The notes: generated by a model not told the origin, from the letters alone. A stretch of 3,964 nucleotides of DNA from Escherichia coli (GCF_003334385.1 NZ_QOWN01000090.1), one strand, 5' to 3'; positions 319 to 780 are shown, counted from the first letter of the stretch. Program-made: numbers and translations.

Positions 319-341
319 TAATACGACTCAGTATGGGGAGA
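319..341 (+). promoter_or_regulatory. T7-type phage RNA polymerase promoter-like sequence (predicted +1 at 336)
   Basis: TAATACGACTCAGTATGGGGAGA matches the T7 consensus TAATACGACTCACTATAGGGAGA at 21 of 23 positions. Mismatches are at -5 (G for C) and -1 (G for A). The -17 to -6 specificity region is intact. Confidence 0.55.
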
Positions 342-428
342 GGGCCTCTGACGAACCCACAGATAGTGTGGTCTCATGCCCTTAGTTGCCCATATCTATT
401 TACGAATCCACCTTAAAGTCAATAGAAA

Positions 429-451
429 CAATACGACTCGCTAATGGGAGA
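429..451 (+). promoter_or_regulatory. Second T7-type promoter-like sequence, more diverged (predicted +1 at 446)
   Basis: CAATACGACTCGCTAATGGGAGA matches the T7 consensus at 19 of 23 positions. The ATACGACTC core and the GGGAGA initiation region are conserved. Same orientation as the first, about 110 bp downstream. Confidence 0.45.
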
Positions 452-589
452 GCGGTGACAAAAAGTTTTCCCTCTATGACAACTAACTGTAACTTATCGC
501 ATCCTTTCAGGGGCGGGATGACCAATTACAGACACCAAGCGTTCTACTTAAAGTGAATGCTTCCTGTGTGCTCTGGGTCAGTCGATAAG

Positions 590-780
590 TGAATAGCAAT
601 AGACATCATATTAACTATGGTCTCTGGTCTACAGGGGCTAAACTTAAAGTTTACTTAAAGACCTTAAAGTTATATTACTTGTTTACACAAGATAATAATA
701 AAAACTTAAAGAATAACTTTAAGAGTACTTATGATTATCTATCATTTAATCTTGTCATAATTCACTTTTGTAATAACTAA
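590..780. other. Strongly AT-rich tract, origin-like or regulatory
   Basis: Visibly the most AT-rich part of the window (roughly three quarters A+T by eye, not computed). It carries most of the CTTAAAG copies. The only ORF here (589..780) has an N/K/L/Y-rich translation typical of AT-rich noncoding DNA. Confidence 0.5.
642..723. repeat. Cluster of CTTAAAG heptamer repeats (iteron-like)
   Basis: Direct copies at 643..649, 654..660, 664..670 and 705..711, plus an inverted copy CTTTAAG at 717..723. Further direct copies lie upstream at 412..418 and 547..553. Three adjacent copies are spaced 11 and 10 bp apart, about one helical turn. Confidence 0.6.

Follow-up and report, generated by a model that had tools for sequence, protein, structure and literature searches.

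A putative phage RNA polymerase-responsive control module with T7 origin-like features in small tRNA-Gly islands of Escherichia coli and related bacteria

The DNA analysed here (hereafter the window) is a 3,964-nucleotide (nt) stretch of the Escherichia coli chromosome (GCF_003334385.1 NZ_QOWN01000090.1), of which positions 75-3892 are 100% identical to strain H7. Positions 319-780 contain two promoters of the phage T7 class (P1 and P2), a conserved structured RNA element (the block) and an AT-rich tract, and constitute a control module acting in cis, which belongs to a ~4.8-kb integrative island at tRNA-Gly (glyU). Besides this module, the island carries an integrase, the anti-phage gene RAZR/PD-T7-4 and two open reading frames (ORFs A and B; Table 1). 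H7 shares with other strains the gene order actS, tRNA-Gly, a 535-amino-acid (aa) tyrosine integrase gene, a DUF4145 gene, ~600 nt of non-coding DNA and two small genes, followed by ygeQ of the ETT2 region. Because the 23 nt at the 3' end of tRNA-Gly are repeated at the position listed as attR, the module sits within an integrative island of 4.77 kb. These boundaries and the gene content were established at locus L001, which has attL at tRNA-Gly, the 535-aa tyrosine recombinase and attR as in the window, and thus combines an integrase and att sites in a small island that lacks a complete virion gene set, as phage satellites of the PICI, PICMI or PLE kind do. The window itself has no integrase, owing to insertion sequence IS421 (IS4-like): its left copy truncates RAZR, so the module is severed from the integrase in this source. 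Inverted IS421 ends lie at 1-75 and 3892-3964 of the window. An element with terminal inverted repeats was considered and rejected, as the 85-nt inverted repeat at the window ends (the start pairs with 3880-3964) corresponds to the IS421 ends found in hundreds of plasmid and chromosome sequences and is therefore not a feature of the element studied.

Table 1. Positions of the control module and neighbouring features in the window
Feature	Position	Strand	Remarks
Left IS421 (IS4-like) end	1-75	no strand	Outside the module; truncates RAZR in the window
RAZR/PD-T7-4 3' end (DUF4145, HEPN RNase)	75-314	+	Last ~79 codons; stop TAG 312-314
P1, T7-class promoter (-17 to +6)	319-341	+	TAATACGACTCAGTATGGGGAGA; +1 = G336; 21/23 consensus; mismatches -5 G, -1 G
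P2, T7-class promoter	429-451	+	CAATACGACTCGCTAATGGGAGA; +1 = G446; 19/23 consensus; mismatches -17 C, -6 G, -2 A, -1 T
5' hairpin of P2 transcript	446-472	+	GGGAGAGC...GTTTTCCCTC; RNA fold
Conserved structured RNA element (block), ~155 nt	485-641	+	AACTGTAACTTATCGCATCCTTTCAGGGGCGGGATG...CAGGGGCTAA
Block helix 2, predicted	492-500 with 582-590	+	ACTTATCG/CGATAAGT pairing
Block hairpin, predicted	544-567	+	
T7 primase pentamers	GGGTC 575-579; TGGTC 618-622, 625-629	+	Sequence reading; about the chance number for the length
AT-rich tract of CTTAAAG-type heptamers	641-780	+	Copies at 643, 654, 663, 705; CTTTAAG at 717
9-bp hairpin closing the AT tract	781-801	no strand	CGATGTCTCCACAAGACACCG; from terminator-like scan, - strand; kept in variants
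Conserved 5' untranslated region	802-924	+	Shine-Dalgarno AAGGAG 911-916; upstream of first gene
ORF A, 234 aa, Ant/Rha-like DNA-binding regulator	925-1629	+	Annotated coding sequence in H7
Frameshifted remnant of 76-79-aa protein of Klebsiella-type islands	1626-1803	+	Two overlapping frames; PRTPEGRKAMRLLDVPTAILVAALGLPP
ORF B, 158 aa, all-helical	1930-2406	+	Second gene in all E. coli-type islands examined
attR	2689-2711	+	23-nt direct repeat of tRNA-Gly 3' end (TTCGATTCCCTTCGCCCGCTCCA); island right end

The first-pass annotation of the window had proposed two T7-like promoters, and both are indeed present on the + strand, matching 21 and 19 of the 23 positions of the T7-group consensus (TAATACGACTCACTATAGGGAGA, 23 bp, -17 to +6). 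A 23-nt pattern covering P1 and P2 had two matches, compared with 0.00 expected from 200 dinucleotide shuffles. The promoters are separated by 110 nt, and both retain the T7 specificity bases at -12 to -8 (CGACT) and the GGGAGA start. P1 has TAATACGACTCAGTAT in common with the natural T7 promoter phi1.3, where the -5 G also occurs, and P2, with four mismatches, is probably weak in this copy. In sister islands at the same site (87-91% identical overall), orthologous positions have the perfect 23/23 T7 consensus (the P1 site in L004 and L010), and P2 orthologues have 0-2 mismatches. Hence, P1 and P2 in the window are slightly decayed versions of real promoters. A scan of the window showed no sigma-70-like promoter on the + strand, and the failure to find a host promoter for ORF A was counted in favour of dependence on a phage polymerase. 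Judging from these sequences, P1 and P2 would be read solely by a phage polymerase and would be silent in an uninfected cell.

Collections were scanned with a motif derived from the conserved non-coding block (yielding 3 IMG/VR, 3 GTDB-genome and 23 metagenome loci), and the block is present at 38 loci in all, from E. coli, Klebsiella, Rouxiella and metagenomes. Wherever upstream sequence is available (38 loci), one to three phage-class promoters precede the block by 75-320 nt, and many islands have an additional phage promoter at +300 to +390, downstream of the tract. The class of these promoters changes with the host's phages. Those of E. coli islands are T7-class with a perfect consensus, while Klebsiella-type islands (including that of K. 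pneumoniae ATCC 13883) combine T7-class promoters with AATTAGGGCACACTATAGGGAGA and AATTAGGTAGCACTATAGGGAGA, which are K11- and KP32-class and have GGGCA or GGTAG at -12 to -8, as in K11- and KP32-type phages. In phage genomes, the K11-class sequence recurs (~10 copies per genome, 174 records), as does the KP32-class sequence (~12 copies per genome, 265 records), and nearly all of the phages concerned are T7-like phages of Klebsiella with ~40-kb genomes, of the K11/vB_Kp1 and KP32 types. A fourth class (RTTAACGACTCACTATAGGGAGA) was found in an unclassified Enterobacteriaceae genome. Among complete E. coli genomes, 212 of 5426 contain a T7-consensus promoter, essentially only at this island (265 of the 268 places are chromosomal, at island coordinates), and 201 E. 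coli genomes contain the block. It is difficult to account for promoters that track the polymerase specificity of local phages in this way unless they serve as functional sensors of phage RNA polymerase. In L011 (628-891) and L012 (5588-5851), three 120-bp tandem repeats lie directly upstream of the block, each consisting of a perfect T7 promoter and a 5' hairpin leader.

The interval between P2 and the tract is not a spacer but holds the highly conserved block, which lies between the promoters and the AT-rich tract and was overlooked in the first-pass annotation. The P2 transcript would begin with a hairpin that resembles the leader of T7 phi10, and in L005 and L006 other sequences form the same stem. 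The block that follows is nearly invariant in A1/A2 and among islands with differing flanks, and in Rouxiella and RIT691 it is 95-97% identical, versus 85-91% for the adjacent RAZR 3' coding sequence. Two block sequence types were found (E. coli-type and Klebsiella-type), and the differences between them are compensatory. An RNAalifold analysis of 16 distinct sequences gave 32 pairs, five of which have both sides changed, although this covariation rests on essentially one A/B split and hence on few independent events. Overall, 99.6% of block cells were paired, compared with 33-45% when the partners were slid by 1-3 columns. The block contains many G-U pairs, and where only one side of a pair has changed, the + strand still allows G-U pairing, which supports a sense-strand RNA. 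Folding of the P2 transcript (446-660) gives -62 kcal/mol (z = -3.1). On this comparative evidence, the block reads as a structured sense-strand RNA. A known RNA family was rejected, as a search with Rfam 15 covariance models returned no match at E <= 1 anywhere in the window, including 485-641, and a small protein encoded in the block was rejected because frame and length are not conserved between the block types. In L008, ISEc12 (IS21 family) is inserted within the block (1856-1890), just after GGGGCGGGATGGC.

The most AT-rich tract of the window does lie downstream of the promoters, as had been proposed (G+C content 0.19 at 651-750, the window minimum), but its distance was underestimated: it begins ~190 nt after P2 (195 nt from the P2 +1) rather than ~140 bp. 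The heptamer CTTAAAG occurs nine times in the window, compared with 0.65 expected (14-fold), and six of these copies are on the + strand, within 412-711. Sister islands have an expanded tract, a tandem array of 13 copies with an 11-nt period. P1 and P2 point into this tract, in line with a T7-type origin, in which a phage promoter is directed into an AT-rich region. Alignment to the origin regions of T7-group phages had been named beforehand as a check, and it uncovered similarity beyond the promoter consensus: the best Smith-Waterman match of window positions 635-700 to either strand of T7 is 5926-5966, the AT segment of the primary origin after phi1.1B, with a score of 34 (the highest of 30 shuffles scored 30), and the second-best alignment is to the left-end repeat region.

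We also ranked T7 and KP32 regions by the 9-mers shared with AT tracts of E. coli-type islands, with promoters masked on both sides. The first-ranked T7 region was 201-500 (phiOL, with CCTAAAG repeats), with 26 shared 9-mers versus a shuffle maximum of 18, and the top five also included 5901 (primary origin phi1.1A/B; 12), 18401 (phi6.5; 9) and 39101 (phiOR; 8). In T7, phi1.1A/B form the primary origin, and phiOR and phi6.5 are secondary origins (PMC8373140). For KP32, the phi6.5-equivalent ranked first (20 shared, shuffle maximum 14), followed by the phiOR-equivalent and the promoter after the polymerase gene. KP32 also has three ACTTAAAG copies with 11-nt spacing right after its RNA polymerase gene. 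As for T7 phiOL, the region ranked first in that genome, it is likewise a replication promoter. The Klebsiella-type tracts share AAGACCCTTAAG with T7 5944-5955, which includes a - strand GGGTC primase site. The site of the T7 gene 4 primase is 5'-(G/T)2GTC-3' (PMC12839067). Pentamers of this kind on the + strand of the window (Table 1) are only suggestive, given a count near chance, and the GACCC, GACCA or GACAC found within sister-island tracts likewise have counts near chance. Some islands have arrays of 10-12-nt repeats after the tract that contain GGGTC or TGGTC (TAGGGTCTC, CCCTTGGGTCAT, CACAGGTCTCCT), which are + strand T7 primase sites (L013, relative positions +290 to +420; L019, L029 and L035, +290 to +400). 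The similarity to T7 origins is at the level of motifs. Homology to phage DNA was rejected, since blastn of the window and of 300-830 against 50,697 phage records gave promoter-length matches only, and outside the promoters the 11- and 12-mers shared with T7 are at chance level.

These features suggest a phage-polymerase-triggered switch combined with a T7-type origin in a satellite-like island, the best-supported of the readings considered, for which we regard the case as evenly balanced. Under this model, an infecting T7-like phage would make its own RNA polymerase, and P1 and P2 would fire. The transcript would fold as the ~155-nt RNA and then enter the 140-bp AT-rich tract, whose CTTAAAG-type heptamers would correspond to those after the replication promoters of T7-group phages. 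In this easily melted tract, the transcript could prime DNA synthesis by the phage DNA polymerase and gp4, and the phage replisome would amplify the island. As no island carries its own replication gene (see below), amplification would fall to the phage replisome. ORFs A and B would be expressed by the same transcription, and very probably the downstream genes are under the control of these promoters as well. From this arrangement we infer transcription by the phage polymerase, priming, replication and a satellite lifestyle of the family, and the island thus looks built to switch on, and probably to copy itself, upon attack by a T7-like phage.

The likeness to the T7 primary origin proposed in the first-pass annotation therefore holds in part. 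Tandem promoters directed into an AT tract and the best T7 alignment (5926-5966) support it, while the layout departs from that of T7, because the tract is ~190 nt away and not adjacent and a conserved structured RNA lies between. Several further observations weigh against an origin. The AT-rich region of T7 is immediately downstream of the promoter, starting within ~10 nt of phi1.1B, compared with 195 nt from the P2 +1 here. Among the T7 k-mer matches, only that to phiOL beats dinucleotide shuffles, and the score of the primary origin (12) equals the shuffle mean; in KP32, only the top k-mer window beats composition-matched shuffles. The ACTTAAAG repeats also precede the Shine-Dalgarno sequence in ordinary KP32 gene leaders and could be RNA or translation features instead of origin features. 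No canonical primase site was found within the window tract itself. A pattern for the attP junction had 0 matches in IMG/VR and 43 fetched loci (a weak test), and no circular or concatemeric form was found in IMG/VR or the fetched loci. Similarity to the T7 and KP32 concatemer junctions was absent (alignments scored within shuffles), which leaves packaging unexplained. Finally, the copy in the window looks partly decayed, with two mismatches in P1 and four in P2 against 0-1 in relatives, a frameshifted small gene and RAZR cut by IS421.

The strongest competitor is an expression switch only, in which the promoters make ORF A, ORF B and other cargo strictly dependent on the RNA polymerase of a T7-like phage, forming a defence or regulatory cassette triggered by the phage, and the block and tract are T7-style leader features (a 5' hairpin, a site for RNase III or other processing, translation-enhancer-like repeats) with no role in DNA replication. 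The phi10-like hairpin of the P2 transcript, the ACTTAAAG repeats directly 5' of Shine-Dalgarno sequences in KP32 leaders, the folding of the block as a sense-strand RNA, the adjoining proven anti-T7 defence gene and the lack of a detected host promoter for ORF A would all fit this explanation. It accounts poorly, however, for the retention of the block and tract whichever gene family comes next. Moreover, in the many islands where a further phage promoter separates the tract from the genes, the unit of upstream promoters, block and tract is redundant and dispensable for gene expression. ORF A, ORF B and other cargo also had no PADLOC defence match, and the HK97-fold protein of related islands (described below) points to a satellite and not to a pure defence cassette. 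We therefore consider an expression switch alone unlikely, albeit a serious contender.

Less probable still is that the ~155-nt RNA is itself the product, i.e., a trans-acting RNA made by the phage polymerase and directed against the phage or exploiting it (e.g., as a decoy or sponge for a phage protein, an antitoxin-like RNA or a processing guide), with the AT tract ending or destabilizing transcription. The extreme nucleotide conservation of the block across genera, its compensatory and G-U pairs, the fold z-score of -3.1 and the presence of up to three tandem perfect promoters ahead of it are what such an RNA might show. Nevertheless, the block matches no Rfam family, its complementarity to and shared k-mers with T7 or KP32 are not beyond chance, and a search downstream of it gave neither a class I nor a class II T7 terminator. 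Such an RNA would also leave the origin-like heptamer tract, itself conserved in kind, without an explanation, and we regard this alternative as improbable.

A packaging role appears very improbable. Processing of T7 concatemers depends on T7 RNA polymerase, and a module that mimics the concatemer junction could, through such transcription-dependent processing, allow phage terminase to package island DNA. CCTAAAG heptamer arrays do adjoin the terminal repeat at the T7 left end, which is also the region best matched by island-tract k-mers. Yet alignments of the block and the post-tract region with the T7 and KP32 junctions score within shuffles, no module contains the class II pause site ATCTGTT and no terminal-repeat-like sequence was found, and on the first two of these grounds a junction mimic was rejected. 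Chance resemblance, contamination with a cloning vector or a dead fragment of T7 DNA, for which only the imperfection of the window promoters speaks, is excluded by the comparative data, with a likelihood close to nil: zero matches are expected by chance, the region occupies a fixed locus in complete chromosomes, in ~200 E. coli genomes and in other genera, T7 homology is absent apart from the promoters, and promoter class changes with host genus.

Comparison of related islands bears further on a switch combined with a T7-type origin. The islands are 4.3-6.6 kb in size, nearly all are located at tRNA-Gly, and they have in common the integrase, the module and the conserved 5' untranslated region (5' UTR). 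A variable slot between the integrase and the module holds RAZR, a 123-aa Ant-like gene or nothing, and the first gene after the module encodes one of three Ant/Rha/KilA-N-type DNA-binding proteins. ORF B comes next in E. coli-type islands, and Klebsiella-type islands instead encode 76-aa, DUF6971 coiled-coil and 375-aa proteins (e.g., the DUF6971 and 375-aa genes at relative positions +1662 to +3343 of L007; likewise in L016, L019, L020, L025, L029, L035 and L036). Homologues occur in Serratia, Pectobacterium, Yersinia and Lonsdalea.

The AlphaFold2 (AF2) model of the 375-aa protein (predicted local distance difference test [pLDDT] 63, predicted template modelling score 0.65) matches only HK97-fold capsids and encapsulins, with 54 PDB matches at E <= 1e-3, among them T7 gp10, SaPIbov5 Ccm and the P4 procapsid, so the protein is probably an HK97-fold capsid-like protein, at moderate model confidence. 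No relative of it was found at the sequence level in phages or PDB. None of the island variants has a replication initiator, primase or helicase, and the island of the window has no genes or sites for capsid or packaging hijack, and no mimic of a pac site was found. The Logan contigs, like the three IMG/VR matches, turned out to be either integrated copies or assembly breaks. Island-length Logan contigs were considered as excised forms and rejected, as they represent assembly breaks at att repeats or other integration contexts.

This context, a 4.8-kb integrative island without its own replication gene, fits a unit that uses a helper phage, and the island family appears satellite-like. More specifically, the mini-islands at tRNA-Gly could be a previously undescribed satellite family of virulent T7-like phages (Studiervirinae), with arrays of helper-polymerase promoters of multiple specificities as the induction switch, a structured pre-primer RNA and heptamer AT tract as a T7-type origin copied by the helper replisome, and cargo consisting of either an anti-helper abortive infection (Abi) gene (RAZR) or the satellite's own HK97-fold capsid protein. 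We put this broader proposal forward tentatively and hold it somewhat less firmly than the switch and origin.

Several known systems offer parallels. The module resembles the primary and secondary origins of T7 in its tandem same-strand T7-class promoters, downstream AT tract, CTTAAG/CTTAAAG-type repeats at ~11-nt spacing and, at a near-chance count, nearby primase pentamers. Unlike those origins, it is on a bacterial chromosomal island, its promoters are 110 nt apart (75 in T7), its tract is ~190 nt downstream and not adjacent, with a conserved structured RNA between, and related islands carry promoters of two or three polymerase specificities. Like the minimal satellites PICMI and VEIME, whose helpers are virulent or marine phages, and the PLE of Vibrio cholerae, the islands are small (4.3-6.6 kb), integrated at a tRNA and composed of an integrase and few genes, with no virion genes (in the E. 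coli type), anti-phage cargo and a presumed dependence on a lytic helper. They differ in that the presumed helper is a T7-like podovirus, induction would occur via promoters for the helper's own RNA polymerase, no replication initiator gene is present, and excision, replication and packaging are putative. VEIMEs and PICMIs are described as packaged as concatemers without capsid remodelling (PMC9618062; PMC10803314).

In the RNA II pre-primer origin of ColE1, a structured transcript is similarly located upstream of the DNA synthesis start, as it would be in the island. There is, however, no sequence relation, the island polymerase would be a single-subunit phage enzyme, and the role as a primer is purely conjectural. 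The HK97-fold gene of Klebsiella-type islands, beside the coiled-coil DUF6971 gene, is reminiscent of the capsid and size-redirection genes of satellites such as SaPIbov5 (Ccm), P4 and cfPICI, but this protein is absent from the island of the window, lacks sequence similarity to phage capsids and was modelled at pLDDT 63.

The gene directly upstream of the module belongs to the RAZR/PD-T7-4 family, which protects against T7 (PMC9519451, PMC13017515). The full 209-aa RAZR gene is annotated in H7, and the DUF4145 gene matches the PADLOC model PD-T7-4 (E 2.9e-100). PD-T7-4 was described as a defence gene selected for T7 protection (PMC9519451) and later renamed RAZR, a HEPN RNase activated by the portal protein of T7/T3 (PMC13017515). 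Neither report mentions an island or T7 promoters beside RAZR, and an integrase appears only in the remark that such genes "often overlap an integrase gene". The module differs from the RAZR/PD-T7-4 system in that it is a separate unit, which is also found without RAZR (L006, L009, L013 and L018).

Downstream of the module, the ~120-nt 5' UTR is kept whichever of three unrelated gene families comes next, and it may be a second regulatory RNA. It contains a stem (GGTCCTCC/GAGGACC, 848-872) whose arm sequences differ in relatives. ORF A, the presumed target of the phage promoters, matches PHROG anti-repressor families (E 1e-8), as does its Klebsiella homologue (9e-42), and its homologue in L040 carries the Pfam domain Phage_pRha. 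The 76-79-aa protein, of which the window retains a frameshifted remnant, looks helix-turn-helix- or excisionase-like by eye, although it had no family match. ORF B was modelled with a pLDDT of 82, yet this gave no informative fold, and ORF B had no Pfam, PHROG, NCBIfam or PADLOC match. Searched by sequence, neither ORF B nor the 375-aa protein had a match in Pfam, PHROG, NCBIfam, PADLOC, phage tblastn or PDB.

A direct repeat (GCCCGCTTTGGGTTTGCCC/GCCCTCCTTGAGTTTGCCC; 1712-1730 and 2467-2485) follows ORF A and ORF B and recalls CCTTGGGT motifs of T7-group terminal repeats, with no significant alignment found. Repeats of the ACTGTAACCA type adjoin attR (window 2605-2635) and attL (L001 5940-5965), and are probably arm-type integrase binding sites. 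Beyond the island, ygeQ (2866-3903), which lies in the ETT2 region and encodes a member of glycoside hydrolase family 15, has an in-frame TGA at 3658-3660, and an intact ygeQ of 536 aa exists in strain GF31 (L002).

In the literature searched, coverage of which was partial, neither T7 promoters in these islands nor satellites of T7-like phages are described, nor is any satellite or chromosomal element keyed to T7 RNA polymerase, even though no lytic phage has been studied better than T7, a mainstay of biotechnology and phage therapy. If T7-like phages do induce the islands, copy them and perhaps also spread them, the islands would represent a new route of gene transfer via strictly lytic podoviruses in E. 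coli and Klebsiella, and would account for where the RAZR defence gene resides in the genome. They would also offer a naturally occurring "multi-phage sensor", in which promoters for several polymerase specificities are combined, and a compact natural origin that depends on T7 and includes an unexplained conserved RNA.

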